Position numbers and translations under genes: made by a program. Source: Nitrospirota bacterium (GTDB taxonomy: Bacteria; Nitrospirota; UBA9217). Taken from it: a stretch of 64,000 nucleotides of DNA. Location: the NCBI GenBank assembly GCA_049793155.1, contig JBARBN010000106.1, positions 16,390 through 80,389 of the forward strand. Direction: 5' to 3'. Of the stretch, positions 7,114 to 51,821 are shown piece by piece (positions within the stretch are counted from its first letter, which is position 1; the number at the start of each line of letters is the position of its first letter). The notes below the pieces were generated by a model. That model was not told where the DNA came from, ran no database searches, and saw nothing but the letters and a program-made list of their open reading frames with translations.

Positions 7114-7851
7114 CTAAATTTTTTTGCGTTCTTGAAGTTCCCTCATCACGCTCGCTCTGATGAATTCGCGGATTGAGGTCAGATCCGCCTCGTTCACCGT
7201 CGTAAATTTCATGCCCATGCCGGGGAATGCATGAAGCCCTGCTTTCTTCGAACTGAAGAGCACGACCGCAGTCGCCTCGATCTCCCTATCACCGAGGATA
7301 AGCACAAGCGAGACAAGTGCATTTGCCGGTTCCGGGGAGTCTGTCCTCACATAGAGACCGCCTTCGGAAAGGCTGGTCACCTCTTCGATCCTGACTTGGC
7401 TGCCTTCAGCCGGTCCCGCCCCTATCCGGGCCTTGAGCGAGGTATTGATGCGGATATTCTGACGAGGCGTTGCTTCAGAGGCAAATTGGATCGCACGGTA
7501 AAGCGCTTCGAGGTCAACAGGTTTTATGAAATAAGCGGCACAGCCGGCCTCTGTGCAGGCTTCTTTGACCGCTGTGCTTTCGTCTGCCGTATTGATAATT
7601 ACCGGGATGAATCGGAGGCTCGCGCTTTTTTTAATTTGCTTCAGAAGATCGAGACCGCTCATCTCCGGAAGGATGGCATCCGTGATCACGACGGTAGGGG
7701 CGGAACGGGCTATTTTTTCCAGCGCATCTTCGCCGCTGGAAACTGCCTCGACAGTATACCGAAGCTCCCTGAGCAGCGATGCAATGTAGAATATGGACGA
7801 GGGGCTTCGGTCCACGATCAGGATCGTACGTTTTTTCTGTTCCATATGCAC
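7114..7851 (-). CDS. Response-regulator receiver domain fused to a PilZ (c-di-GMP binding) domain
   Basis: The N-terminal REC is ILIVDRSPSS...VITDAILPEMSGLDLL. The C-terminal PilZ motifs are RQNIR (RxxxR) and SLSEGG (D/xSxGG). Confidence 0.75.
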   Translation of the reverse strand: MHMEQKKRTILIVDRSPSSIFYIASLLRELRYTVEAVSSGEDALEKIARSAPTVVITDAILPEMSGLDLLKQIKKSASLRFIPVIINTADESTAVKEACTEAGCAAYFIKPVDLEALYRAIQFASEATPRQNIRINTSLKARIGAGPAEGSQVRIEEVTSLSEGGLYVRTDSPEPANALVSLVLILGDREIEATAVVLFSSKKAGLHAFPGMGMKFTTVNEADLTSIREFIRASVMRELQERKKI

Positions 7852-16199: not shown

Positions 16200-17729
16200 C
16201 TACCAGTCAATGGGGAAATAATCCTTCAGGAATTTCCCGCTCCAGTGCCTCCCTGTCAGGATGCCGTCAAAGAAAGGATCGCAGACCCGCGCTGCTCCGT
16301 CAACGATATCCAGGGGAGGCTGGAAATCGTGGACCTTTTGCTTGAGTTCGGAAAGGGCCGCAGGATCCTCATCCGTGACCCACCCCGTATCGACCGCATT
16401 CATGTAGATGCCGTCCTTGGCAAGATCCGCTGCCGAGGTATGGGTCATCATGTTCAAGGCCGCCTTCGCCATATTCGTATGGGGATGTCGTTCATCCTTT
16501 TTGAACCTGAAGAACTTGCCCTCCATTGCGGTCACATTCACAATATGTTTCTGCCCGGTATGGGCCCGCCGCATAAGGGGCACAAGCCTGTTGCACAGGA
16601 TAAAGGGGGCCACGGAATTCACCAGCTGCACCTCGAGCATTTCCGTGGTCGGGATCTCTCCCATACGCAACCGCCAGCTGTTCGTCCTGCGGAGATCCAC
16701 CTGCTGAAGGTCCGCATCCACCCTTCCCCTGGGGAAGAGCGCTTCAGACCGGGAAATAGGGTCATGATCGGAGGGCTCCTGCGAAAGCCTGGCGGATTCG
16801 CACAGACCGATGCCAACCCTCTCTTCGTTCCATGCCTGAGAAAGGACGGTACTCCCCTCCCCGCAGCGGCTGCCGGCAGGCGAAAGCTGTTTTGTACACG
16901 CGACATGATCATCAAGCAGCGTCCGGACTTCTCTCGGCAGTTCATGGCAACCCTGTTCTTCTCGTTCCATCAGATGGGCATAGAACCCGGGCGGTCTCCT
17001 CACGGTCTGGGCAGCGTTATTGATCAGGATGTCGAGGCGTCCGTACGTGTGCTCCACATATCGCGTGAACAGCTCGACGCTCGGGACATGCCTGAGGTCA
17101 AGACCGTGAACATGCAGCCGGTGGCCCCACGCGGCAAATCCGTCTTCCCGGGAATAACGCAGGGCCGCATCAAGGGGAAACCTGGTCGTTGCAATGACCG
17201 TAGCGCCGGCGCGCAGCATCATGAGCGCTGCCTGAAACCCTATCTTCACGCGTGCGCCTGTGATCAAGGCGACCTGGCCGGCAAGTGATGCCGTCTGGAA
17301 GCGCTTCCGGTAGTTCTGGTCCCCGCATTTCCTGCACATGCAATCATAAAAAAAATGCAGCTCCGTGAACTTTTCCTTGCACACATAGCAATTGCGGGAG
17401 GAACGCAGTTCCTCCCGCCCCTGATCAGGTACGGAGGCATATCCCTCGATCTGCGCAGGGGCAATAAAGGTTCCCCGGGCGCGGGCAATGCGGATACCTG
17501 TCGCATTTCTCGCACGCCGGTCCTGTTCGAGCCTTGCCAGGCCGCGCGTTTTGTTCAGCGACTTGTTCCTTTTCTTTCTTTCCGCCCGGTCGGGACGGGA
17601 TAGTTCCCCGGCCGCTTTCAGCAGCGCGCGTCGTTGTTCTTCAGAAACACCTGCAAACAGTCCCGCATCGCCGACCAGGTCGCCGAGGAGGGAGATACAC
17701 TTTGCAATTTCGTCGGGGCCGTGTTTCAT
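16200..17729 (-). CDS. SDR-family oxidoreductase with an N-terminal extension containing a C4 zinc-ribbon-like motif
   Basis: The SDR core is [11 protein letters not shown]...NNAAQ. The N-terminus carries [24 protein letters not shown]. The start was set at the internal ATG ([10 protein letters not shown]) because the upstream extension lacks support. Confidence 0.6.
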
Positions 17730-18045
17730 GGCACGACCTCCCTTCATGAGAGATACAGTACAAAGTCTAAAAAATATTAAACTGATCCCAGGATGCTTTT
17801 CTTGATCGAAAAATGATACGCCTCTTAAGCGAAAGGGGCAAGCGGAAATTGCGGCAGATAGAATATCGTCACCGAGAGCTCGGAGTAACGTTATCGGATT
17901 AAAAGCATTAAGCGGTGTACCGGGCGACTCTGCGGACATCCGGGGTCGCGGAGATGGCAATGCATCCCCTTGTATGTCTGCGTCTTGGAAATTAAAAACA
18001 GGCGGAACGGATTTACCGTCCCGCCTGTTGCAGATAATTTATACG

Positions 18046-19734: not shown

Positions 19735-20081
19735 TCTGTAGTCCTCCCTCGATAAATTATATTTCAATCGACATTGAAAAGCTGGGGTGAACTATACACG
19801 ACCAGGGCGGCACTGCATATGACAGAGATCATACGAGATGAACAGGTTTTTCAAGGAGAAAGGCTTTGACTTCCTGATCATTCCGCCTGAGAAGCAACGA
19901 CTCTTATCGGGGAAAAAGATGCGGTCAAACATTGGAAAGCCGGTCACCGGTCCCCGATTCTTGCGTTTGTGATGAAAAGCACTGCGCAAAATTGTCATTT
20001 TATGTTATAGTTGTCTTGCTGCGATCTGTCTTGATCGCAGTCAGGAAGTCAACCTCGCACTCAAGACAAATAACGGGACCA

Positions 20082-20948
20082 ATGTCAGATAAGACCTCGC
20101 CGGACATTTCAGGATACAGGACCTTATACAGGCTGTCGATCTATGTTGTGATCCTTGCCTGGATCGTGCTCGGACTCTATTTCTTTGTGTTTACGAGGGC
20201 GGAATACCCGTCGGCAGCGAAGATAGTCCAATATTTCTTATCACCCGAGCAGCTTGGAATAAAGTTCAGGGCATTAATACTTCTCGCCCCGCTTATTCTT
20301 ACCATTGTCAGCTATCTCATCTATGACCGGGCCAATCTATTTCTGAAATCGATCATCGCGGAGCAGCAGTTGCGCGTCCTCCGGGACGATCTCATCGTTG
20401 CGTTCGCGAACGCCCTTGACGCAAAGAGCTCCTGGACACATGGTCACTCGCAAAGGGTCACTTCCTACGCCCTCATGATCGCCGAGAAGCTCCACGTTAA
20501 CGGTGAGGACCGGGAAACGCTCAGGATCGCAAGTTTACTCCATGACGTCGGAAAGATAGGAACGTATGATGTCATTCTTGACAAGCCGGGTCCGCTTACC
20601 GAGGAGGAATGGCGCCTCGTCAAGCTGCACCCCGGCAAGGCTGAGGAAATCCTCAAGCCGATAAAACAACTTCAGCATGTGCTGCCGATCATTAAATATC
20701 ATCACGAGAGGATTGACGGGAAAGGATATCCGGACGGTCTTACGGGAGCAGAAATACCGCTGTTGGCGAAAATACTCTGTCTTGCGGATTCATTTGACGC
20801 CATGATCGAAAATAGGCCGTATAAAACGGGGATGAGCAGGACCGAGGCCTATGGTGAGATCAAGGATAAAACGGACACGCAATTTGACTCGGCTGTTGCG
20901 ACGGCATTCTTGAGCGCAATTGATGCGCGGAGTAATGATCCGCGCTGA
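20082..20948 (+). CDS. Membrane-anchored HD-GYP domain phosphodiesterase
   Basis: An N-terminal TM segment is followed by HD (LLHDVGKIG) and HHERIDGKGYP (HD-GYP signature). Confidence 0.75.
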   Translation: MSDKTSPDISGYRTLYRLSIYVVILAWIVLGLYFFVFTRAEYPSAAKIVQYFLSPEQLGIKFRALILLAPLILTIVSYLIYDRANLFLKSIIAEQQLRVLRDDLIVAFANALDAKSSWTHGHSQRVTSYALMIAEKLHVNGEDRETLRIASLLHDVGKIGTYDVILDKPGPLTEEEWRLVKLHPGKAEEILKPIKQLQHVLPIIKYHHERIDGKGYPDGLTGAEIPLLAKILCLADSFDAMIENRPYKTGMSRTEAYGEIKDKTDTQFDSAVATAFLSAIDARSNDPR

Positions 20949-21982: not shown

Positions 21983-22318
21983 TGCTCATTCCCCTTTTTG
22001 GCAAAGAATCGAAAATTACAACCACGCATTATGATAAAGAATAGCACAGTCAGGCTCAAAAAGCCCCTGAAGGCGGTCATTTTTCGCTGCACAAGTGACC
22101 ATATGACACACGGCCCGCGGTATTCGATGCGATAGGGACGGACCATAGGCGGAGGATAGCAACGTAAAAAGGAAATGTCAAACACTAAAGATCAGACCTA
22201 TGATGCTCTCTACCCGCAAATCGACTGTACTTTATCAGGCGCTGATGATAATATCAAAACAATTCAGCATGCGAATGAATAAAGGATATCGCCTGGCAAA
22301 AGCAGGGGGGTAACTACC

Positions 22319-22765
22319 ATGAACGTTGCGGAAATGATCAAGCAGGTCCTGGAGCAAAAGGGTTACCGGAACCTGCGGGAAGCCTCGAAGGCGCTCGGCA
22401 TAAGCCAGGAGCTTCTGAGGCTCACGGTCAATAAACGGCACATCCCGAAGGATGACCTCCTCGGCACGATAGCGGACAAGCTCGGCATGGACCGGTCTGC
22501 ATTGCTCCTCGCAGCGCACCGGGAGAAGGTCCCCGTCGAGGTGCAGGGGTTCTTCCTCTCTCCGACGGAAGATAAAAAATACCAGCAGAAGCGGGTTTGG
22601 CCCCTTTCCGAGGAGCAGTGCAGCTATCTCGAGAAGGTCCTGAACGAAACGGAGATCCAGCACATCAGAAAATTCCGGCAGCTCCCGGACGAGGCACAGG
22701 AGCAGATCACGGGCTACCTCGACTATACCTGGGCAATGAAACGGTTATTGATGAAGAAAAGTTGA
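22319..22765 (+). CDS. XRE-family HTH transcriptional regulator
   Basis: The HTH is LREASKALGISQELLRLTVNKRHIP. The protein is 148 aa. Confidence 0.65.
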   Translation: MNVAEMIKQVLEQKGYRNLREASKALGISQELLRLTVNKRHIPKDDLLGTIADKLGMDRSALLLAAHREKVPVEVQGFFLSPTEDKKYQQKRVWPLSEEQCSYLEKVLNETEIQHIRKFRQLPDEAQEQITGYLDYTWAMKRLLMKKS

Positions 22766-22769
22766 AGTT

Positions 22770-22895
22770 AAGGCGGACGTAAAGGCTGATGCAAAGGCGA
22801 GGTAAAGCGAGGCAAGGCGACAAGAAGCGACTGGGAGATGAGAGGACGATGCACTTTTCTATTTTGGTCACAAAGTCGCTTTTTGTCGATTCTCG
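22770..22895 (+). repeat. Intergenic composite repeat, R3 block (gacgtaaagg..gcaaggcgac..agaagcgactgggagat..cgctttttgtcgattctcgtc)
   Basis: Long shared blocks with the reverse complement of 58545-58717, including an exact 21-mer 'cgctttttgtcgattctcgtc'. It shares 'gtcgattctcgtcgg' with the rc of 53500-53620. Confidence 0.5.
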
Positions 22896-23062
22896 TCTCT
22901 CTTATCATGTCGCACATAGTCCCTTGCTTCTTATCCCCTGTCATTATATAATACGGGTGATTAAATGAGTGAAGTCCCCCTGACCTTTCTGAACAGGTGC
23001 GTTGCTGGCTGACAGGTCAACACCCCTGAGGGGATGCATACCAGGGATCAATACGAGAGAAC

Positions 23063-24841
23063 ATGGCTTTTACCGGAGATCTGGAATATCTGAACATAGT
23101 GGACATCATTCAGCTGGTCCACGCCACGAAGCAGTCGGGCATTTTTTCCGTTAAGATACCCAACGCCGAGAGCAGGATCGTCTTCAGGGCCGGAAACATC
23201 GTTGGTGCAAATCATATCGACAACAGCGTTCGCATCGGGACCGTCCTGGTAAAGATGGGCGCTATAACGATCGACGATCTCAAAGAGGCAATAAGCGCCA
23301 GGAAGAACGCGGATAAAGACCGCATGCCGCTTCTCGCTACCCTGGTACAGATGGGCAAGCTGAAGCGGGAAGACGCCCTGCGAGGATTGAAAAAGCTGGT
23401 CGAGCTTGCGATCGTTGAACTGATGAGCTGGACGAAGGGCACGTTTACCTTCGACACTGAAGCGGCCGTCATTTCCTTCGAGGGGGGGCAGGATCTAGCC
23501 GTTGATGCCCAGATGGTCCTGATGGATGCGCTTCGCATCTCCGACGAGCGGGAACGCGACCGCCGTGAGGGAAAAGAAGTGCCTTCCATTGTGGCGCTCT
23601 ATCCCGATGTCCTTCCCGGTGAAGGCGACGCTGAAACGGAAGCTGAACGTTCGATGGTTACCGCGGATGATCTCGGGCTTGCCGACCTCGACCGTCTTGA
23701 AAAGAAGATACCCCGGCCTGCTTCTGAAATGGAGCTCTACGATCCGCTCGAGATCCACCGCCGGACCATACAGGAACTTCTCCCGGGTTTTTCTTCCGAA
23801 GAACAGGTTGCCTTTTTTTCTTTTCTGAAGAAATCCCTGGACCGAAAGGCCGGGCCCGACGATAAGGGGAAACAGGCGGGCAAGGCCGTCGTCATGTTCA
23901 GCAAGGACGCGCTGATAAACCATTCGGTCATGTCTCTTTGCAACAATGAGGGAGCGCTCGTATTTACGACAGACGACGATAAGGATCTCGGCCGGATGGT
24001 ATCGCAGTGCCTCCTTTCCGCGAGAATGCCCGTGGTTGTCTTCGACAGTCCCGCGGGACCGGAAGGCGTTTTTTCCCGGGAGAGGATCGCAGAACTGAGG
24101 AATCAGGTGAGGGCAAAGTACCCCTCGGTCCCTGTGCTTCAATTCGCCTCGCCTCAGGACAGCGAGTTCATCCTTCGCTCGTACCATGACGGCGTGAGGG
24201 CCGTCCTCCCCAAACCGTCGAAAGAGGGCCAGAGACAAACGTATATCCAGGATACGATAAAGTTCCTTGACGCGTTCAAGTCGTATGTTAAGAGCATTCA
24301 GAACGAAAGTGATGATGCCGATATCTACGTGAGGAAACTGAAAGACGGCATCGCGTCGCTTCGCGGGCTCACCAACCCTGCCGATGCGCCGCTCGTTGTC
24401 CTCACCGCAGTTTCCGGGATGTTCGAACGCGCGGTCACGCTTGTCGTCCGTGCCGCGGAATTGATCGGTGAAAGGGCCATAGGGATAGGTTCCGAGAAAC
24501 GCGAGGTGCCGACTCCTGCGGGCAATCTTAAGATCCAGCTTTCAAAACCTTCTGTTTTCCGCGACGTTGTCGAAAAGGGGCGGGTCTATTACGGAGAGAG
24601 CGGCGATGAAACGCTCAGGACATTTTTTGCGGAAATAGGCGCGCCGTTGAGGCCTGCCATCGTTCTGCTGCCCCTGATATCCGATCGAAAGGTCCTTGCG
24701 GTGATATATGGGGATTTCGGCCTGAAAGAGGCGTCTCCCGTGCGGCTCGACATGCTCGAGATCCTTGCTCAGCAAGCGGGCATTGTTCTGGAATATGAGA
24801 TCTTCCGAAGACAGATGACGAAAGCGGCGCAAAAAACATAG
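23063..24841 (+). CDS. PATAN/DUF4388-domain protein with a central receiver-like region and a C-terminal GAF-like domain
   Basis: The N-terminus GDLEYLNIVDIIQLVHATKQSGIFSVK matches the DUF4388 (PatA N-terminal) consensus. It is followed immediately by a PilT-like ATPase gene. Confidence 0.6.
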   Translation: MAFTGDLEYLNIVDIIQLVHATKQSGIFSVKIPNAESRIVFRAGNIVGANHIDNSVRIGTVLVKMGAITIDDLKEAISARKNADKDRMPLLATLVQMGKLKREDALRGLKKLVELAIVELMSWTKGTFTFDTEAAVISFEGGQDLAVDAQMVLMDALRISDERERDRREGKEVPSIVALYPDVLPGEGDAETEAERSMVTADDLGLADLDRLEKKIPRPASEMELYDPLEIHRRTIQELLPGFSSEEQVAFFSFLKKSLDRKAGPDDKGKQAGKAVVMFSKDALINHSVMSLCNNEGALVFTTDDDKDLGRMVSQCLLSARMPVVVFDSPAGPEGVFSRERIAELRNQVRAKYPSVPVLQFASPQDSEFILRSYHDGVRAVLPKPSKEGQRQTYIQDTIKFLDAFKSYVKSIQNESDDADIYVRKLKDGIASLRGLTNPADAPLVVLTAVSGMFERAVTLVVRAAELIGERAIGIGSEKREVPTPAGNLKIQLSKPSVFRDVVEKGRVYYGESGDETLRTFFAEIGAPLRPAIVLLPLISDRKVLAVIYGDFGLKEASPVRLDMLEILAQQAGIVLEYEIFRRQMTKAAQKT

Positions 24842-24999
24842 ATACCTAACCCGGACAAACCGGAACCAAGCCCACCATGAAGGCACTAAGGCACGAAGAA
24901 ATGCCGGAAGAAACGGATGAGAGAGCCTGACCTCAGCATTTGGTTTTCTTTGTGTCTTCGTGACTTTGTGGTGAATAAACGCGGAGGTACACGGTCGCC

Positions 25000-26079
25000 A
25001 TGGATAGTGCAATCTTCAACCAGATCCTTCACATTGCATTCGATAAAAAGGTCTCGGATATCCATTTTGAGGTCGACAACCCGCCGATGTTCCGGGCGCG
25101 CGGCCATCTTATTCGCTCCAAGCTCGAGAACCTGACCAAAAAGGATACCGAGTTCGTCGCGAACGCGGTCATGGAGCAGCACCTCCGTAAGCTGCCCGAA
25201 GACCTGAAGGAACTTGATACTTCCTATACGCTGGCGAATGTCGGCCGCTTCCGGGTGAGCATCTTTCGTCAGCGCGGCAATCTCGGCGTTGTCATGCGCG
25301 TTATCCCCCACCAGATCGGCACGTTCGAGGAGTTGAATCTTCCGCCGGTGCTCGGCAAGATCGCGCAGGTCCCGAACGGACTGATCCTCGTCACCGGGCC
25401 GACCGGCAACGGCAAATCAACGACGCTTGCTTCAATGATGCGGTTCATCAATGATAATTTCGATTACAATATCATTACGATCGAGGACCCGATCGAGTTT
25501 CTGTTCACCTCGAACAAAAGCTGCATCATCCAGAGAGAGGTGGGCATCGATACGGAAAGTTTCAGCGTTGCGCTGCGGTCCGCAATGCGCATGAATCCTG
25601 ACGCCATCATGGTCGGAGAACTGCGCGATCTCGAGACCATAGATGCCTGTATGAAGGCCTCCGAGACGGGGCATCTGGTCTTGTCCACTCTTCATACCCA
25701 TAATACGTCTTCGTCCGTCAGCCGTATCGTTGGTTATTTTTCACCCCAGGCGCAGGAGAATGCCCGGCAAAGGCTGGCCGAGAGCCTTGTCGCGGTCATC
25801 TCCCTGAGGCTGGTACGGGGAAAGAACGGCGAGACCATCCTGCCGGTCCTGGAAGTGATGTATGCGACGTCCACCATCAAGGCGTGCATCAGGGATAATC
25901 ACCTCGACGATATCGAACAGTATATCGAAAAGGGACGCGACGAATACGGCATGCAGACAATGGACCAGCATCTCATTCAGCTCTGCAGGGCTGAACTCAT
26001 CACGCTCGATGAGGCAAAGCGCACGTCTCGCTCGAAAGACCTTGAGCGAAAACTGACCTACAGCGATAATGTAAGGTAA
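25000..26079 (+). CDS. pilT: PilT/PilU-family type IV pilus retraction-type ATPase
   Basis: Walker A is GPTGNGKST. Walker B/Asp box is AIMVGELRD. The His box is STLHTHN. The 359-aa length fits PilT. An RBS 'ggagg' is present. Confidence 0.8.
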   Translation: MDSAIFNQILHIAFDKKVSDIHFEVDNPPMFRARGHLIRSKLENLTKKDTEFVANAVMEQHLRKLPEDLKELDTSYTLANVGRFRVSIFRQRGNLGVVMRVIPHQIGTFEELNLPPVLGKIAQVPNGLILVTGPTGNGKSTTLASMMRFINDNFDYNIITIEDPIEFLFTSNKSCIIQREVGIDTESFSVALRSAMRMNPDAIMVGELRDLETIDACMKASETGHLVLSTLHTHNTSSSVSRIVGYFSPQAQENARQRLAESLVAVISLRLVRGKNGETILPVLEVMYATSTIKACIRDNHLDDIEQYIEKGRDEYGMQTMDQHLIQLCRAELITLDEAKRTSRSKDLERKLTYSDNVR

Positions 26080-26142
26080 TTCTCCTGCCGATAGCCTTGC
26101 CTTCTCTGGAGCGAAAGGGGCAGAGAGCCCCCCAGTGGTTCA

Positions 26143-27177
26143 TCATGCCTTCTTCGCTTCAGCCGGAATGACAAAAAGCGTGATCTTCTCTGTTCCCCGT
26201 ATGAACCGTATCGGCATGCTCGACCCCGCTACCTCATGGGTAAGGAGCCGGTGCAGATCATCGATGCCGGGCACCGGTATCCCGCCGAAACCGATTATAA
26301 TATCTCCCTCGCGAAGTCCCGCCTGCTGTGCCGGACTATCCTGCTCGATCTGTTCAACTCTCACGCCGCTCTCAACCGGGAGGTGGTAAAATCGCACAAC
26401 GCGCCGATGGAGCGGAACATTCTGGCCGCCGACGCCGATATAGCTTCGCCGCACCCTTCCCTCCTTGATCAGGGCCGCCGCGATGAACTTTGCCGTATCG
26501 ATGGCAATGGCAAAACACAGGCCCTGTGCGGGCATGATCATCGCCGTATTCACGCCGATCACCTCTCCCCGTGACGTTACCAGCGGGCCGCCGGAATTCC
26601 CGGGGTTCAGTGCCGCGTCGGTCTGGATCACATTGTCGATGAGCCGGCACGTACGGGAACGAAGCGAGCGGCCCAGCGCGCTCACGACACCCGCGGTCAC
26701 GCTGCACTGGAAGCCGTAGGGATTGCCCACGGCGATCACGAGCTGCCCGACGCGGGTCGATCTTGAATTGCCGAGCGGGGCCGCGGCCAGGTTTGGCGCA
26801 TGGATACTGATCACCGCCAGGTCGGTGTCCGGATCATCCCCGACCAGTGTTGCCCCGTATCGCTGTCCATCCACCAGGGTCACATCGATCGCGGAGGCGC
26901 CGTGCACAACGTGGCTGTTGGTAAGAATAAAACCGTCGGGGGTGAAAAAAAATCCGGACCCTCCGCCTTTCGTCTCACCCGGCCGCGGGCCCGCGTCCCG
27001 GCTGGACACCTCGATGTTCACGACAGTTGGGCTGATCCGCTCTGCGGCCTGTATCACGGCGCATGAGTACGCATCGAGAAGGCCGTCATCCGGTGAAAAC
27101 GGTGAGCCGGCCGCCTGTGCCGCCTCGGATTGCGAATGCCCGGATGCGGCTATTTCAAGGACCTGTTCCATCCTCAT
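26143..27177 (-). CDS. Trypsin-like serine protease with a C-terminal PDZ domain (HtrA/DegP family); no N-terminal signal peptide apparent
   Basis: The catalytic-triad context is TNSHVV ... D ... GNSGGPLV. The PDZ region is GVRVEQIEQDSPAQQAGLREGDIIIG. The RBS 'ggagg' precedes the ATG at 27177. Confidence 0.8.
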   Translation of the reverse strand: MRMEQVLEIAASGHSQSEAAQAAGSPFSPDDGLLDAYSCAVIQAAERISPTVVNIEVSSRDAGPRPGETKGGGSGFFFTPDGFILTNSHVVHGASAIDVTLVDGQRYGATLVGDDPDTDLAVISIHAPNLAAAPLGNSRSTRVGQLVIAVGNPYGFQCSVTAGVVSALGRSLRSRTCRLIDNVIQTDAALNPGNSGGPLVTSRGEVIGVNTAMIMPAQGLCFAIAIDTAKFIAAALIKEGRVRRSYIGVGGQNVPLHRRVVRFYHLPVESGVRVEQIEQDSPAQQAGLREGDIIIGFGGIPVPGIDDLHRLLTHEVAGSSMPIRFIRGTEKITLFVIPAEAKKA

Positions 27178-28036: not shown

Positions 28037-28801
28037 ATGAACATCACGCCGTCAACAGATAAAGAAACCGGAAATCGCGCCATTGTTATCGCGGGCGGGC
28101 AAACCAGGGATATGCTCTCCCTTTCGTTTCTGCTCCAGCGGTTCGCGTACAAGGTCTACAGCGCTCACACGTCCACCCAGGCCCTTGAGCTTATCTCATC
28201 GGCCCGTCCGGCCCTGGTCATTGCTGATCCGGTCCTCGCGGGTGCGAGCCAAGCGGACCTCCTTCACCTGCTGATGAAGCGGAACACTGCCGTCGCGTCC
28301 ATTCCCGTGCTCTACATGGTATTTCCCGGCGACGCCGCAATGGAGCAAAAATGTCTTCAGTACGGAGCGGCAGGCTGTATCTCAAAACCTGTCCAGGCCG
28401 AGGAATTGTTTCATGCAGTCCAGGCGGCCGTCGAGCCAAAACCGCGCGCCGATATCCGGATCGACACCCGTTTGCCGGTATCCCTGGACAATGTTCCTCT
28501 CGAGTGCTCCGACGATGAAGGCGGATGCGCGATCGACCTGTCCGCGCATGGGATGCATGTTCCGATGGCCGCGCCCTATCCCCCGAACAGGCGGCTCAAG
28601 GTACGGATCAGCATCAAGGACCGGACTATCTCGGCAGAGGGCCGGGTGATGTACAGCCATACCCCGGGGGCAGGATCAAACCGCAAACCCGGCATGGGTC
28701 TCAAGTTCAGTACCATCGAACCGCAGGACCAGGAGTTCATCAGAAAGTTCATACGAGATGAGGTCATGAGGGATGTAGCAGCAGCATTGAGCGGGGCTTA
28801 A
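28037..28801 (+). CDS. Receiver-like domain fused to a PilZ domain (paralog of 7114-7851)
   Basis: The PilZ motifs are RADIR (RxxxR) and DLSAHG (DxSxxG). The N-terminus is receiver-like. The RBS is 'ccaggaggc'. Confidence 0.7.
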   Translation: MNITPSTDKETGNRAIVIAGGQTRDMLSLSFLLQRFAYKVYSAHTSTQALELISSARPALVIADPVLAGASQADLLHLLMKRNTAVASIPVLYMVFPGDAAMEQKCLQYGAAGCISKPVQAEELFHAVQAAVEPKPRADIRIDTRLPVSLDNVPLECSDDEGGCAIDLSAHGMHVPMAAPYPPNRRLKVRISIKDRTISAEGRVMYSHTPGAGSNRKPGMGLKFSTIEPQDQEFIRKFIRDEVMRDVAAALSGA

Positions 28802-30775: not shown

Positions 30776-31510
30776 ATGGCAAATGGATTACAGAAAAAGG
30801 TCGCTCTCGTGACCGGGGCGAGCCGCGGCATAGGACGGGCGATCGCCCTTGCCCTCGCCGAAGCCGGGGCCGATGTAGCAGTGAACTATTTCTCTCATGA
30901 GCATGAGGCCCTCGACGTGGTAAAGGCAATTGAGGGCATGGGCCGCGGGTCCATCGCCGTACAGGCCGATGTCTCCCGGGCTTCCGAGGTCGCGCGCATC
31001 GTTAAAACCATACCTCATGAGCTGGGTGAAATTGATATCCTGGTGAACAATGCGGGAATTGCGCGGTCCCGTACGGTCGACACGATCACTGAACAGGATT
31101 GGGAAGACGTCCTGGCAACGAATCTCACTGCATCGTTTCTGCTGACCCAGGCAGTGCTCCCCGCCATGCGACGGAAGAAGTGGGGACGCATCATCAACCT
31201 TTCCTCTGCTGCCGCCCAGACAGGAGGTGTTGTCGGCCCCCACTATGCTGCCTCGAAAGCCGGCGTCATCGGGCTCACGCATTACTATGCGGCCCATCTC
31301 GCAAAAGAAGGCATAACCGTGAACGCCATAGCCCCCGGTCCCACCGACACCGAGATGGCGGCAGCGCTGCCCCAATTGTCCGCGAGCAGCATTCCCGTCG
31401 GCCGCTTCGGCACCCCCGAAGAGATCGCATCCGTGGCAGTGCTGCTGGCCAATAACGGCTTCATCACGGGTCAGACCATAAATGTGAACGGAGGCAGGTA
31501 CTTCGACTGA
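30776..31510 (+). CDS. fabG: 3-oxoacyl-[ACP] reductase (SDR)
   Basis: TGASRGIGRAIAL ... NNAG ... YAASKAG, which is the classical FabG pattern. The RBS is 'aggagg'. Confidence 0.8.
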   Translation: MANGLQKKVALVTGASRGIGRAIALALAEAGADVAVNYFSHEHEALDVVKAIEGMGRGSIAVQADVSRASEVARIVKTIPHELGEIDILVNNAGIARSRTVDTITEQDWEDVLATNLTASFLLTQAVLPAMRRKKWGRIINLSSAAAQTGGVVGPHYAASKAGVIGLTHYYAAHLAKEGITVNAIAPGPTDTEMAAALPQLSASSIPVGRFGTPEEIASVAVLLANNGFITGQTINVNGGRYFD

Positions 31511-31629
31511 TCCGGGCGGGCATGCATCCGAACAAAGGGCCGGAGTCCCTGCCGGGATTGAGGTGATTAAAATGATAATTGCTGATGATTTCAAGGGATA
31601 AGAGAGGTAGTATACAGTGACCATACGTA

Positions 31630-34243: not shown

Positions 34244-35308
34244 CTACGATGTCTCGAAGATCTTGTCAAAGTCCGGTGCGATCTCCCTGAACGCCTTGAG
34301 CACGTCGGGGTCGAAATGTCCCGGCATTGTCCTTTCGTCTCCCTCGATGATGATCTTGAATGCCTTTTGGCTGTCGTATGCTGTTTTGAAAGGCCGCCCG
34401 CTGCGCAGGGCGTCATACCGGTCCGCAAGCAGGACGATCCTCCCTGCAAGGGGAATTTCCTTTCCCCTGAGCCCGAGCGGATAGCCGCCGCCGTCCCACT
34501 GTTCGTGATGGGTCCATGCGATAGCAGCAGCCATCTGGATGACGGGATAGGTTGAATTGGACAGGATCCTTTCGCCGATGGTGGTGTGCGACCTCATGAT
34601 CCCCGTTTCCTCCCGCGTAAGCGGTCCCGTTTTCAGAAGTATACGGTCGGGGATCCCGATCATCCCGACGTCATGCGCCTGGCTGGCGAAGGCAATGTCC
34701 TCGACAAAATCCGGGGACAGGTCCATGGCCTCGGCGATCCTGCGCGAAAACAGTCCGATCCTCGAAATATGACCGCCGCTGTCCGTATCTCTCAATTCAG
34801 CGGCCGCGGTCAACTTCCGCACCATCTCGCTGCTGATGTCCTTGATCTCACGGAACGCCTCGTCGAGCTCAAGCGTCCTTCTCCGGACCTCCTCTTCCAG
34901 TCTCTGGTTGTGCGTGAGCATGAAATCCCGGGCAGCCTTGACCGCGAGAAGGTTCTTCACCCGCAGGGTCCACTTTGACTGGTCAATGGGCTTTGAAAGG
35001 AACTCGTCCGCGCCGACCTCCAGGCCCTTCAGCATCGATTCCCGGTCATGCAGTGCCGAGACCATGATTACGGGGATGGTCGCCGTGTCCAGGTTTGCCC
35101 TTATGTGACGGCACACCTCGTATCCGTCCATGAACGGCATCATGATGTCGAGGATGACGAGATCGGGCTTGATTTCCATGCACCTCTTCACCGCCTCTTC
35201 GCCGTTCGAGACCAGGAATGCTTCATATCCCAGCTCGGTCACGAGCATGCTGATCAGCTCGCGATTCACTTCCTCATCGTCTACGATAAGGATCTTTTCC
35301 TTGGCCAT
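34244..35308 (-). CDS. Response regulator with receiver plus HD-GYP phosphodiesterase domain (RpfG-like)
   Basis: The REC is ILIVDDEEVNRE...LDIMMP. The HD motif is AHDVGMIG. The HD-GYP signature is HHEQWDGGGYP. The RBS is 'aaggagg'. Confidence 0.85.
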   Translation of the reverse strand: MAKEKILIVDDEEVNRELISMLVTELGYEAFLVSNGEEAVKRCMEIKPDLVILDIMMPFMDGYEVCRHIRANLDTATIPVIMVSALHDRESMLKGLEVGADEFLSKPIDQSKWTLRVKNLLAVKAARDFMLTHNQRLEEEVRRRTLELDEAFREIKDISSEMVRKLTAAAELRDTDSGGHISRIGLFSRRIAEAMDLSPDFVEDIAFASQAHDVGMIGIPDRILLKTGPLTREETGIMRSHTTIGERILSNSTYPVIQMAAAIAWTHHEQWDGGGYPLGLRGKEIPLAGRIVLLADRYDALRSGRPFKTAYDSQKAFKIIIEGDERTMPGHFDPDVLKAFREIAPDFDKIFETS

Positions 35309-48913: not shown

Positions 48914-51238
48914 TCAGAAACGTTCGAATTCCTTATCCCGGAAGTCAGGCGTGTCATAACTTTCCAAACTGATCTTCGCACCCGCGAGCTTTGGAGGACG
49001 GACCGGCGCGTACACTTTCGTGAACGGTCTGTCCGCAGTGACAAGCGGGCGGGCCTCATGGTGTGCTACCTCTTCGTTCACCCTGGCAACTTTGAAGAAC
49101 GCGATCGTGCCCTGAAGCTGTTCGGACTGGGACGACAACTCCTCCGCGGTAGACGACATCTCCTCCGCAGCGCCCGCGTTCTGCTGGATCACCTGATTGA
49201 GCTGCTGGATGGCGCCGTTGATCTGGTCCGCACCCGTGGTCTGCTCTTTCGATGCAGCGCTGATCTCCTGCACCAGCGCTGCGGTCTTCTGGATATCAGG
49301 CACCAGCTTGGCCAGCATCGCCCCGGCTGTTTCGGCAACGTGGACGCTTATGGTCGACAGCTTGCTGATCTCTGTGGCCGCCACCTGGCTCCGCTCCGCA
49401 AGCTTTCTCACCTCCGAGGCAACCACGGCAAAGCCCTTCCCGTGCTCGCCGGCCCGGGCCGCCTCGATCGCAGCATTCAATGCCAGCAGGTTTGTCTGGC
49501 GGGCGATCTCCTCGATGATCGATATCCGGGACGCGATCTCCTTCATGGCAACCACGGTCTCGGACACGGCCTTGGCGCTCTCCAGGGCATCGGCGGATGA
49601 CTTGAGCGCGATCTTCTCGGTCTGTGATGCGTTGTCCGCGTTCTGCTTGATCGTGGCGTTTATCTGTTCGACGGACGACGAAGCTTCCTCGGCTGATGAC
49701 GCCTGCTCGGTATTGCCCTGCGACAACTGCTCCGCGCTGGCGGACAACTGCTGGCTGCCCGAGGCCACATTCTCTGCTGCTGCCTTGACGTCGGTTACCA
49801 CTCTGTGCAGTTTTTCGACCATTTTGGCAAGGGACTTTCCAAGGCTGTCGTTTTCAGAGAGCACCTTGACCGTGCGCGTGACGTCGCCATTTGATATCAT
49901 CTCAGCTACCTGGGCGTGACTGCTCAGGGTTTCGACCATGCTGTTCATGCTTTTTCCCAGCACGTCTTTTTCGGAAAGGACCCGAACTTTCACATTGAGA
50001 TCGCCGAGGGCGATCCTCTCTGCATTTTTCGCATGGTCGCTGAGGTTCTCGACCATCTTTTTCATGGCATCGAATATGCGGCCGAACTCATCATGTCGAT
50101 CGATCTGTATCTGCTGCGTCAGATCGCCGCTGCTGATCTGAGTAACATAATCGAGGGTGCGTTTCACCGGCCTGCGGATCAATCTCAACGAGAGAAGATA
50201 GATCGCCGCGATGAGGGCCACGACCACAAGAGCGCTCGCGAGAAGCAGATAATTTCTTATCTTCGCGGTCACGGCAGACATATCAGCGGCGTATATTCCG
50301 GCCCCGATGACCCAGTTCCAGTTGTCATGGGAGGTATAGACCACGATCTTGTCCCGCGGATGGATCTCCTTTGCTTCAGTATTCAGCCAGGGGTACCTGA
50401 TGATGCCGTTCTTCTTTTCGAGCATTTCCTTGATGAATTCCCGCCCATTGGAGTCTTTGGAATCGAGAATATTCTGGCCTTCCTTGAACGGATGAACGAC
50501 CAGATTTCCGTATGTCGGGCCTGTTTTTGCGTCCAGGACGTAAAGATAACCGCTTTCGCCCACCTTCAATGACCGGATCTTATCTTTGAGGCCCCTGAGG
50601 TTTTCGGTGAAGTCCACGCCGATAAAAAAGATGCCGATAACGCGCCCTGCGCTGTCCTTGATAGGAACATACTTGGTCATATAATCTTTGTTAAAAAGCG
50701 TGGCTTTGCCTGTGTAGCTCTCACCCTGGATCAGCTTTTTATATCCGGGATGTTCCTGTCCAAGAATCGTCCCTATAGCCCTCGACCCATCCTGCTTTTT
50801 CAAGGAAGTAGCGACGCGTACGAAGGTATCATCATCCCTTCTTGCGAATATCGTTGCCACCGCCCCGGTGATGCGTGTAAACGCATCGATCCTCTCAAAA
50901 TGCAGATTTATGACGCTGTTGCCTGCCAGTAACGTCGGGGTATCCGTCTCTCCGATGCGTATCTTCTTTGTCGGGGCGATCGTGATCTTTTCTGGATAAT
51001 ATGACGTAAAGACATTGGACAGCATGTCCGCATTGTGCTGCAAATTGCTGTCATAGGTCTCTACCATATCCTTGACAAGCTGCACTCGCGACGTCAGCTG
51101 TTCCAACGTTTGTTCCTCAAAAACTCCCGTAGTATGGCGGCTGACAAAGAACGTCAGGATGAAGAATGACAGAGAAACAATGGCAACAAGAATGATCACC
51201 AACTTCGTCCCAATGGACATATCGCGATAGCTCATCAT
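48914..51238 (-). CDS. Methyl-accepting chemotaxis protein with a periplasmic Cache-like domain and tandem HAMP repeats
   Basis: The RBS 'aaaggaga' precedes ATGATG at 51238. A TM and Cache-like region are followed by three copies of the unit (GDL.V.V.VLSE.D.LGKS...MVE.L). The MCP signalling domain is ([15 protein letters not shown]). Confidence 0.85.
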
Positions 51239-51278
51239 GTTAGTCTCCTTTGTAGCGTTGAAATTTGTTGATGGTAGC

Positions 51279-51821
51279 TCACGATCGTTGTTCGCTGCCC
51301 GTAATCCATCCTGCATTCGCCGCGTCCTGTGCCGCGTCAGCTTCGAAATGCTCCGCTCGCGCACGTTCATCGGAAGAAAACACCTTGTCGATGTCCAGGA
51401 TGATGACGAACCTTTCGTTATGCCTGCCCATGCCCTTGATGAACTCCGTGTTCAGCCGCTTGCCGATCTTGGGCGCCGGCTCGACATGCTCGGACCCCAG
51501 GTCCATCACCTCCTGCACCGAATCAACAAGCGCGCCCAGAACAACGGTCTCCCCGTCAACCGTCACCTCGACGATGATGAGGCAGCTGTTCACAGTCTTC
51601 TCGGTCTTCGCCAAGCCGAACTTGAGCCGCAGGTCCACCACCGGCACCACGCTGCCGCGGACGTTGATCACACCGCACATGAATGCCGGCGTGCGCGGGA
51701 CCTTCGTGACCGCCGTGAAATCGAGCACCTCAAGCACCTTGCCGATCTCGAGCGCGAAAACCTCTTCGCCAAGTTTGAAGCTCAGATATTGAGTCGTTTC
51801 CATGATACCCGCTTCGGCCAT
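51279..51821 (-). CDS. cheW: Chemotaxis coupling protein CheW
   Basis: The RBS 'gggagg' precedes the ATG at 51821. The CheW fold is [17 protein letters not shown] ... [14 protein letters not shown]. Confidence 0.8.

Follow-up and report, generated by a model that had tools for sequence, protein, structure and literature searches.

What does a PilT-like ATPase do when it stands beside a PATAN-domain regulator, with no other pilus genes nearby? We followed up this question in a 64-kb stretch of Nitrospirota DNA, called the window here. The unit consists of a 592-aa ORF at 23063-24841 (+), gene 1, and a 359-aa ORF at 25000-26079 (+), gene 2, with a gap of 158 nt between them. Positions, lengths, strand and gap all match those given in the initial annotation. 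On balance, we favor the reading that these genes form a two-gene operon, in which a PilT-family ATPase paralog is gated by its own signal-integrating adaptor, encoded directly upstream.

Gene 1 encodes a PATAN domain with a helical insert, a linker carrying a conserved motif, a receiver-like domain and a GAF domain, as assigned from the ORF, Pfam and an AlphaFold2 model. Its N-terminus had been named beforehand as the test of the DUF4388 assignment, and it scored 86.8 bits with Pfam DUF4388 (PF14332; cut-off 25, E 1.5e-24), residues 4-163 covering profile positions 1-121 of 122. We found 634 homologs, the closest of which are named DUF4388 proteins from Nitrospirota MAGs. In a set of 38 diverse homologs every member matched DUF4388, and the PATAN domain (aa 1-168, 23063-23566, +) was the best-conserved portion of the protein. 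Its invariant residues include G5, L7, D14, Q17, L18, G26, G44, W123, G126, F128, R158, D161 and E162. The same 38 homologs served as the input alignment for the AlphaFold2 model, which reached a pLDDT of 85.1. In this model the beta-rich PATAN core is split by a four-helix insert (aa 55-122, 23225-23428, +), with helices at 58-64, 70-82, 90-96 and 102-121 and strands at 45-50 and 127-131 on either side. The insert thus has the two repeated antiparallel-helix units, known as alpha-clips, that are described for PATAN/DUF4388. It resembles MshEN_N by NCBIfam NF053729, by weak profile matches of PilF and MshE N-termini and by the model. The two repeats span R57-R80 (nt 23231-23302, +) and P89-L112 (nt 23327-23398, +).

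Behind the PATAN domain lies a linker whose residues 188-225 were modeled with pLDDT below 50. Within this disordered region we identified a conserved short linear motif, VTADDLGLADLDRLEKKIP (aa 199-217, 23657-23713, +), with a conservation of 0.82 against 0.62 in the flanking linker. Its L204-G205-L206 core is present in all 116 orthologs and in 94% of the 38 diverse homologs. The receiver-like middle and GAF-like C-terminus described earlier proved to be real folds of divergent sequence, as judged by the model and Foldseek. The top Foldseek match of the model was the receiver-GAF dual-sensor kinase 6ob8 (E 1.4e-9). The receiver-like domain (aa 271-390, 23873-24232, +) has a (beta-alpha)5 pattern and matched 6ob8, RssB, LuxO, FixJ and PleD in Foldseek; CheY-like and NtrC receivers gave weak PDB profile matches, and Pfam Response_reg had no match in the gene 1 protein. 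Its candidate phospho-acceptor D328 is found in all 116 orthologs, as are D282 and P385, and K384 is found in 103 (Arg in the other 13). The first acidic residue is replaced by S280, giving S-x-D (S280-x-D282) in place of D-D, and the switch Thr is replaced by A362. Because the acidic pocket is incomplete, the switch position is Ala, and the Asp and Lys are not universal among the 38 diverse homologs, phosphorylation of this domain appears doubtful. The GAF domain (aa 437-592, 24371-24838, +) matched 3ci6, DevS GAF-B, the PDE2A and PDE10A GAF domains and Lcd1 GAF-cAMP in Foldseek (TMt 0.63-0.72, E down to 2.6e-6). Pfam GAF_2 scored 21.6 bits (cut-off 28.6) and was matched by only 6 of the 38 diverse homologs; GAF_3 was also below cut-off. 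R456, Y549 and D551, the latter two within a Y549-G-D551-F-G motif, are invariant in the same set.

Gene 2 was confirmed as a PilT/PilU-family ATPase, presumably hexameric, with 417.9 bits against a cut-off of 319.1 for TIGR01420 (residues 6-346 covered) and an E value of 1.6e-48 for T2SSE. The closest solved structures are Thermus PilT 5fl3 (E 1.5e-81) and Aquifex PilT 2gsz. The protein aligns end to end with both and has no N1/MshEN N-terminal extension. Walker A (GPTGNGKST, 133-141), Asp box (IITIEDPIEF, 158-167), Walker B (DAIMVGELRD, 201-210) and His box (GHLVLSTLHT, 224-233) are all in place, and by its sequence gene 2 is a canonical PilT with every catalytic signature retained. PATAN-linked PilTs are 61-69% identical across phyla, whereas the linked PilT of Trichloromonas scored only 273-278 bits with the Geobacter PilT structures 5zfq and 6ojx (about 275 with Geobacter PilT4). 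Judged by these scores, the linked PilTs, gene 2 among them, form an ATPase paralog family of their own, separate from the pil-cluster PilT4 of Geobacter. The PilT is more constrained than its PATAN partner, with a mean top-residue frequency of 0.88 versus 0.72.

The spacer between the genes (24842-24999, +) contains a long imperfect palindrome at 24873-24973, followed by a GGAGG ribosome-binding site at 24983-24987. The palindrome has arms of 29 nt that are 79% complementary, an RNA fold energy of -53 kcal/mol (z -3.65) and a single occurrence in the window. No intrinsic terminator was scored in the 158-nt gap. Relatives with a 51-nt gap have no palindrome, those with long gaps have different hairpins, and the GGAGG region ahead of pilT is conserved in relatives.

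The neighborhood survey proposed earlier for DUF4388 and PilT showed that the pair is strictly co-conserved. A pilT start was found on the same strand within 600 nt downstream of the PATAN gene in 101 of the 105 loci with enough DNA; with five further remote loci (L138-L142) that also have pilT downstream, the count becomes 106 of 110. The gap has a median of 60 nt and is most commonly 51 nt. When flanking ORFs were clustered over 49 genomes, only the PATAN gene and pilT were co-conserved (41 and 40 loci), and the pairing persisted down to 25-30% partner identity (L051, L052, L141, L142). The pair occurs in Nitrospirota and in proteins named Desulfuromonadales and Trichloromonas. The PATAN gene and pilT are a conserved two-gene unit, and all other neighbors change. 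That the two are kept together across two bacterial phyla points to a previously unstudied regulator dedicated to a PilT motor. The architecture by itself does not imply a PilT partner: in L054-L057, PilT is missing beside related proteins, both PATAN-REC-GAF proteins encoded at Che cluster ends and PATAN-REC proteins.

The initial annotation had suggested a regulatory ATPase module under c-di-GMP control. The two-gene module stood, and the proposed c-di-GMP route through the neighboring genes found no support. These neighbors were as described: a Trypsin_2+PDZ protease of HtrA type (26143-27177, -) that has no hydrophobic N-terminus, in line with a cytoplasmic protein, a REC-PilZ gene (28037-28801, +), an HD-GYP gene (19932-20948, +) and a REC-HD-GYP gene (34244-35308, -), all assigned with Pfam. 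The window is rich in c-di-GMP genes, with two REC-PilZ and two HD-GYP in total, but beyond the two or three closest relatives (L002, L003) unrelated genes take the place of the REC-PilZ and HD-GYP neighbors. We regard the protease, REC-PilZ and HD-GYP genes as lying outside the PATAN-PilT module.

The same idea survives with another sensor, namely that the alpha-clip insert is a working MshEN_N-type site that couples the c-di-GMP level to PilT activity. NF053729, the MshE-related c-di-GMP motif model, was matched by 33 of the 38 diverse family members (best E 1.5e-10), and 8 of the 38 also matched the NfrB-like MshEN glycosyltransferase model. The window protein itself is matched at residues 57-109, but its 22.4 bits are below the cut-off of 38 for an MshEN c-di-GMP receptor. 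Repeat 1 fits the relaxed 24-residue MshEN motif of Wang et al. 2016, and its R-I-G, L17 and h21 positions are kept in 107-113 of the 116 orthologs. Imperfect motifs may still bind, as in Bd2402 (PMC5013675). However, the MshEN double motif RLGxxhhxxGhhxxxxLxxxLxxQ, in two copies 5 residues apart, was not found in the gene 1 protein. Position 24 of repeat 1 is Arg in the window protein and variable in the clade (Gln in 39, Met in 27, Thr in 21, Ala in 8, Lys in 7). Repeat 2 has L, I or M at position 3, Gly in none of the 116 orthologs, and an invariant Leu at position 24 where MshEN has Gln; the spacer between the repeats is 8 residues versus 5 in MshEN. The polar contacts of MshEN come from these Gly and Gln residues of its motif. 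One subclade (P0250, P0239, P0257) has lost the R-x-G of repeat 1 and still has PilT directly downstream. Also, no c-di-GMP riboswitch or other Rfam family was detected in 22000-26500, and alpha-clip repeats have already been described as a general structural feature of PATAN (bioRxiv 10.1101/2021.06.11.447907). On these motifs, c-di-GMP control of the PATAN-PilT pair is unproven, and we consider gating of PilT through the insert unlikely.

Another explanation is co-expression without direct contact. Here the target of the adaptor would be extension, through PilB or PilC as in cyanobacteria, and pilT would be co-transcribed so that the retraction motor and a brake on extension are made together. 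[quoted passage not shown] Synteny is moreover proof of functional linkage, not of binding. Against this explanation, the two genes have long been very close neighbors, with gaps often of 9-60 nt, and the PilTs concerned belong to one specific paralog family, which is more typical of physically interacting pairs. We give co-expression alone a low probability.

The claim that the ATPase has no pilus genes nearby held for the window and for its relatives. No PilB, PilC, PilM/N/O or secretin family was found among the approximately 50 ORFs scanned with Pfam in the 64-kb window (ORFs of about 120 aa and longer), no prepilin GF(T/S)LxE motif in any frame, and no second T2SSE ATPase by tblastn. A classical type IVa pilus cluster, with pilB, pilC, pilMNOPQ and a pilin beside pilT, is accordingly absent from the window. 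Pfam-annotated flanks of 6-10 kb on each side of L001, L051, L052, L138, L139, L141 and L142 contained no pil genes either, and across about 110 loci none were seen close to the pair. A link to small Ras-like GTPases had also been raised, and the window has no MglA- or MglB-type gene.

From the orphan position it had been suggested that gene 2 could be something other than a classical retraction motor. The protein retains every PilT catalytic signature. In P. aeruginosa, the pilTU genes lie apart from pilBCD and from pilMNOPQ. To expect PilT beside pilB and pilMNOPQ as a rule was too strong, as only pilT4 of the four G. sulfurreducens pilT genes is inside the pil cluster (PMC5065972). With pilT so often unlinked, the orphan position is no argument against a retraction motor. 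This PilT paralog and its adaptor might instead work in some other machine, for instance in DNA uptake, in the control of polysaccharide or polarity or in a type II secretion-like system, or have a regulatory task only. This would fit the lack of pil genes and the separate paralog family, the conclusion of Speers et al. that PilT4 is the G. sulfurreducens retraction ATPase and that PilT3 may serve a separate apparatus (PMC5065972), and the AIRNLIRE-equivalent segment, which is TIKACIRD (292-299) with only I..IR[DE] retained; yet we find this quite improbable, as gene 2 is well above the PilT/PilU cut-off and about as close to Thermus and Aquifex PilT as the lineages allow, Thermus PilT departs from AIRNLIRE in the alignment too (Aquifex PilT retains it), and no alternative machine is encoded nearby.

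In the operon reading that we favor, the N-terminal PATAN domain, with two alpha-clip repeats as at the N-termini of PilB, GspE and MshE, would be the output end of the adaptor. Its docking site would be the type IV pilus motor, PilT itself or the PilC/PilM platform, and it would in effect supply PilT, in trans, with the N-terminal docking module that PilT lacks. The conserved acidic-hydrophobic linker motif is a likely tether peptide, and input would come through the receiver-like and GAF domains. Switched by a phosphorylation-like or small-ligand signal, the adaptor would then determine when or where PilT engages and retracts pili. The physical interaction, the direction of regulation and the nature of the signal are what we infer here, and we assume a type IV pilus, encoded in another part of the genome, as the machine acted upon. 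Geobacter has REC-MshEN-T2SSE and GAF-MshEN-T2SSE fusions (PMC5013675, Supplementary Table 4), so sister ATPases carry these regulatory domains in cis. Taken further, PATAN-REC-GAF might be the missing regulatory N-terminal module of PilT in trans, with the alpha-clips as a site for c-di-GMP or a related nucleotide and the GAF and receiver-like domains as a second input. This would make a signal-gated retraction motor, whose regulators would form a widespread, unrecognized PilT-specific class in Nitrospirota and Desulfobacterota, a speculative idea with the odds against it.

Regulation of type IV pili is understood mainly on the extension side, from PilB with MshEN, FimX-PilZ and the cyanobacterial PATAN regulators, and dedicated regulators of retraction ATPases are scarce. 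A PilT paralog with the same multi-sensor PATAN partner over two phyla is a concrete candidate for such a regulator. It would extend the link between PATAN and pili beyond cyanobacteria and Myxococcus, and would give a likely role to a large family (approximately 160 clusters at 50% identity with E < 1e-30) now annotated only as 'DUF4388 domain-containing protein'. Many of the hosts are uncultured anaerobes of sediment, groundwater and soil, for which pili are important in attachment, in aggregation and possibly in electron transfer.

Several known systems resemble the pair in part. In structure, the C-terminal two-thirds of gene 1 come closest to the receiver-GAF dual-sensor histidine kinase (6ob8, 6oap, 6oaq), with a receiver, a long helix and a GAF domain in common. 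This likeness is structural only (11-13% identity). The 6ob8 protein is a bilin-binding kinase, whereas gene 1 lacks a kinase module and shows no sign of a chromophore. G. sulfurreducens, from the same class of bacteria in which the PATAN-linked PilT is found, likewise has several PilT-family ATPases per genome, PilT1-4, of which the majority lie away from the pil cluster, each with a gene context of its own. The contexts described, by which alone we compared them, are recA-pilT1, pilT2-GSU0231, mshE-pilT3 and pilB-pilT4, with no PATAN gene mentioned upstream (PMC5065972). In the Xanthomonas PilB-PilZ-FimX system, separate cytosolic signaling proteins are also attached to a pilus motor ATPase and regulate it. 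There the domains are PilZ and GGDEF/EAL, the signaling proteins act on PilB, an extension ATPase, and their genes are not known to form a conserved two-gene operon with that of the ATPase.

The MshEN ATPases (V. cholerae MshE, Geobacter Gmet_3473 with REC-MshEN-T2SSE and Glov_1971 with GAF-MshEN-T2SSE) use the same set of parts as the pair, namely alpha-clip/MshEN_N-type helices, a receiver, a GAF domain and a T2SSE-family ATPase. Their sensors are fused in cis to extension-type PilB/MshE/GspE, whereas in gene 1 they form a separate protein, with the helices nested in PATAN, beside a retraction-type PilT, and the second c-di-GMP half-site is degenerate in the gene 1 family, unlike in MshEN. 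The cyanobacterial PATAN-REC regulators PixG, PixE, LsiR and PilG differ from gene 1 in their hosts (cyanobacteria versus Nitrospirota and Desulfuromonadales) and in their location in a Che-like cluster instead of beside PilT. Gene 1 departs from the two-domain PatA type by its extra C-terminal GAF, by the linker of approximately 100 aa that carries the conserved motif, and by a receiver so divergent that Pfam does not match it. Gene 1 has no Che genes beside it in the window, and only its more distant relatives L054 and L057 are hosted by Che clusters. By synteny its partner is the retraction ATPase, whereas the cyanobacterial proteins, in which PATAN is the output contacting motor parts, chose PilB1 and PilC over PilT in yeast two-hybrid. 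In both groups an N-terminal PATAN with two alpha-clip repeats precedes a receiver-type domain, and each group has a functional link to a motor ATPase of the type IV pilus.

ORF calling placed the two genes exactly where the initial annotation had put them, with gene 1 at 23063-24841 (+, 592 aa) and gene 2 at 25000-26079 (+, 359 aa). They are separated by 158 nt, and a GGAGG ribosome-binding site lies 12 nt ahead of the gene 2 ATG. The DUF4388 (PATAN) domain proposed for the N-terminus of gene 1 was confirmed with the Pfam HMM (DUF4388/PatA_N, E 1.5e-24), as was the PilT-like ATPase call for gene 2, which matched T2SSE (Pfam, E 1.6e-48) and the PilT/PilU family TIGR01420 (417.9 bits, the cut-off being 319.1). 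NCBI assigns identical and near-identical proteins to an uncultured Nitrospirota bacterium, in line with the origin of the window.

The pair was found far beyond the window. A scan of one genome per species identified 49 loci, and a metagenome scan gave 80 further loci. Where no less than 700 nt of DNA was available downstream of gene 1 (105 loci), a PilT gene started within 600 nt on the same strand in 101 cases, with a median gap of 60 nt and a commonest gap of 51 nt. Clustering of the flanking ORFs showed that only the two genes themselves were co-conserved (41 and 40 loci), the next family being present in 7. All but one of the 49 genome loci were titled Nitrospirota/Nitrospirae (including Nitrospiria and Nitrospiraceae), Ca. 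Sulfobium or Thermodesulfovibrionales MAGs. The sole exception, L009 (JBLMWN010000087.1), is labelled a Betaproteobacteria MAG, and its two genes are 70% and 90% identical to those of the Nitrospirota window, which probably points to misbinning and not to transfer. In addition, an exhaustive remote search among representatives identified about 100 full-length gene 1 homologs with 26-49% identity, and named relatives include Desulfuromonadales, Desulfuromusa, Geobacterales and Trichloromonas. The neighbourhoods of six remote full-length homologs were inspected (L051, L052/L053, L138, L139/L140, L141 and L142), and each had a T2SSE gene of 355-357 aa located 9-54 nt downstream, amid unrelated housekeeping genes. 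The predicted co-conservation of gene 1 and PilT in related genomes was thus borne out, and both the anatomy and the linkage of the pair are demonstrated.

The linked PilT proteins of the remote loci were 61-69% identical to the window PilT, as compared to only 25-38% for their PATAN partners. The linked PilT of Trichloromonas reached only 273-278 bits when compared with 5zfq and 6ojx, the PilT structures from Geobacter, though these come from its own class, and its score against Aquifex and Thermus PilT was about equal to that against Geobacter. Together, these identities and scores mark the linked PilT as an old, separately inherited paralog that moves together with its adaptor.

Gene 1 was modelled with AlphaFold2. 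A model from 16 close homologs reached a pLDDT of 56 and was discarded in favour of one that drew on 38 diverse homologs and had a pLDDT of 85.1. It predicts five parts: a PATAN core (residues 1-168; strands 3-6, 26-50 and 127-131 with flanking helices) that contains a four-helix insert (58-121), a linker without predicted order (about 170-225), a receiver-like domain of (beta-alpha)5 type (about 271-390) and, connected to the latter by a very long helix (391-434), a GAF domain (about 437-592). The top Foldseek match in the PDB was the receiver-GAF dual-sensor kinase 6ob8 (E 1.4e-9), followed by many isolated GAF domains with TM-scores of 0.63-0.72. The receiver-like middle and GAF-like C-terminus that had been proposed were therefore recovered as folds, but no Pfam receiver family matched gene 1 and the Pfam matches to GAF_2 and GAF_3 were weak and sub-threshold. 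Judged by its residues, the receiver-like domain is atypical. In 116 orthologs D328, the candidate phospho-acceptor, and the K384-P385 pair are conserved, S280-x-D282 stands in place of the usual acidic pair and Ala362 occupies the position of the switch Thr; across the wider family, G, A or N sometimes replaces the Asp, and Arg usually stands in for the Lys. Disorder is predicted for linker segment 199-217 (VTADDLGLADLDRLEKKIP), yet this segment is conserved as strongly as the PATAN core, with an L-G-L motif found in 100% of the orthologs and 94% of the diverse set. Such conservation despite predicted disorder is the signature of a putative short binding peptide.

Some relatives were found without PilT. 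Two PATAN-REC-GAF proteins (L054, L057) end Che clusters and are preceded there by a separate GAF protein, and a PATAN-REC protein of 416 aa is encoded on its own (L055, L056). The Che-cluster relatives suggest that the PATAN-REC-GAF family has Che-coupled and PilT-coupled branches. The Che clusters contain CheA, CheW, CheR, CheD and CheB; the PATAN-REC-GAF proteins, which are more distant relatives, lie at the 3' end, directly downstream of the GAF protein of about 288 aa (regions L054 906-3560 and L057 7085-10301).

The neighbours initially named are real according to Pfam, and comprise a Trypsin_2+PDZ protease, encoded on the opposite strand to the pair and lacking a hydrophobic stretch at its N-terminus, a REC-PilZ protein and an upstream HD-GYP protein; a REC-HD-GYP protein is encoded further downstream. 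The HtrA-like protease, REC-PilZ, HD-GYP, O-methyltransferase and hybrid-cluster protein were rejected as parts of the module, since they were kept only in the two closest relatives (L002 and L003). No PilB, PilC, PilM/N/O, secretin or pilin families were detected with Pfam among the approximately 50 ORFs scanned over the whole 64 kb, tblastn found no second T2SSE ATPase in the window, and a prepilin leader motif was absent from all frames of the window, in agreement with the claimed lack of other pilus genes nearby.

Signalling genes are unusually dense in the window, including those at 7114-7851 (-), 19932-20948 (+), 28037-28801 (+), 34244-35308 (-) and 48914-51370 (-). The set comprises two REC-PilZ paralogs (33% identical), two HD-GYP proteins, a Cache-HAMP chemoreceptor, several histidine kinases and a sigma-54 activator. 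A 148-aa protein with an HTH-like N-terminus and no Pfam family (22319-22765, +) precedes the pair in the window as well as in L001 and L002, and a homolog is found downstream of pilT in L038 (13294-13620) and L043 (13302-13742). A 278-aa minus-strand ORF without a family (30788-31624) is the shadow of a short-chain dehydrogenase gene (30776-31510, +). Another ORF of 586 aa (16200-17960, -) has an unusual architecture and an uncertain start: short-chain dehydrogenase matches fall in two stretches (229-320 and 433-537) behind a long match-free N-terminal region, and it overlaps a 364-aa plus-strand ORF.

Between the two genes lies a long imperfect palindrome with 29-nt arms (24873-24973; RNA fold energy -53 kcal/mol, z -3.65), and a second one was observed in non-coding DNA near the pair (22815-22939). 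Relatives with long PATAN-pilT gaps (L002, L015, L017, L025, L028 and L043) each have a different long hairpin, located between a conserved stop-proximal piece and a conserved ribosome-binding piece; no hairpin occurs in relatives whose gap is 51 nt. The palindromes resemble REP- or MITE-like insertions, which could affect the expression ratio of the two genes.

The initial annotation had suggested that this could be a regulatory ATPase module controlled by c-di-GMP. The module is real, but no evidence was found for control through the neighbouring REC-PilZ and HD-GYP genes. An alternative, weak c-di-GMP lead runs through the PATAN insert. The NCBIfam model NF053729 ('c-di-GMP motif, MshE-related') matched residues 57-109 of gene 1 with a score of 22.4 bits, short of the cut-off of 38, and had matches in 33 of the 38 diverse members of the family (best E 1.5e-10); the family profile also gave weak matches to PilF and MshE N-termini in the PDB. 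This likeness to MshEN, the c-di-GMP receptor domain of MshE-type ATPases, is already known. In the account of Makarova 2006 given in bioRxiv 10.1101/2021.06.11.447907, the PATAN insertion consists of two 'alpha-clip' repeats that also occur N-terminally in PilB/GspE-type ATPases, and such repeats were later shown to build the MshEN c-di-GMP site, where the polar contacts with the ligand come from Gly and Gln residues (PMC5013675). In gene 1, repeat 1 (R57-R80) satisfies the relaxed 24-residue MshEN pattern, with Arg at position 24 in the window protein and a variable residue there in the clade (Q39, M27, T21, A8, K7). Repeat 2 (P89-L112) never has Gly at position 3 and has an invariant Leu where MshEN has Gln, and the spacer between the repeats is 8 residues as compared to 5 in the MshEN definition. 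Moreover, the repeat 1 R-x-G has been lost from a subclade (P0250, P0239 and P0257) in which PilT still lies immediately downstream. On this evidence c-di-GMP binding is possible in part of the family but cannot be the core of the mechanism, and c-di-GMP gating is judged unlikely.

In several unrelated lineages, a PilZ-domain gene recurs downstream of pilT at a distance of one to three genes or at most about 5 kb, but in a small minority of loci (window, 28037-28801; L003, 13782-14285; L025, 8454-9170; L048, 16637-17350; L052, 9923-10720; L053, 3682-4479). This may reflect chance or a loose association.

It had also been proposed that the ATPase is not a classical pilus retraction motor. Gene 2 aligned over its full length with the PilT structures of Thermus and Aquifex (E around 1e-81) and retains Walker A, the Asp box, Walker B and the His box. 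The AIRNLIRE motif is partly retained, as TIKACIRD, and Thermus PilT diverges equally there; no feature of the gene 2 sequence marks a non-motor. A non-retraction role is kept alive by the linked PilT being a distinct paralog, but orphan pilT genes are ordinary, so the proposal is not established and we regard it as improbable. A riboswitch or other known RNA near the pair was rejected, as Rfam gave no match at E <= 1 over 22000-26500, and so was an anti-phage defence role, with only weak PADLOC matches to generic P-loop and protease proteins.

The best-supported reading is a two-gene operon that encodes a PilT-family motor together with a multi-sensor PATAN adaptor dedicated to it. Literature searches on PATAN with PilT and on DUF4388 found no report of such a pairing; to our knowledge, the PATAN-receiver-GAF architecture, its pairing with PilT and the phyletic range of the pair have not been described previously. 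The literature on pili in Thermodesulfovibrionia gave nothing useful. G. sulfurreducens has four PilT paralogs, with only PilT4 within the pil cluster, and none of the four contexts is reported as PATAN-linked (PMC5065972). Geobacter also has REC-MshEN-T2SSE and GAF-MshEN-T2SSE fusions (PMC5013675). PATAN regulators of pilus motors are already known: in PatA-type regulators of Synechocystis, the PATAN domain contacts PilB1 and the PilC N-terminal domain (bioRxiv 10.1101/2021.06.11.447907). For the two-gene operon we infer an adaptor-motor contact, a signal and a target machine. By analogy with Synechocystis, the adaptor may dock PilT on the pilus base or gate PilT, with the receiver-like and GAF domains as the inputs that would control this docking or gating.
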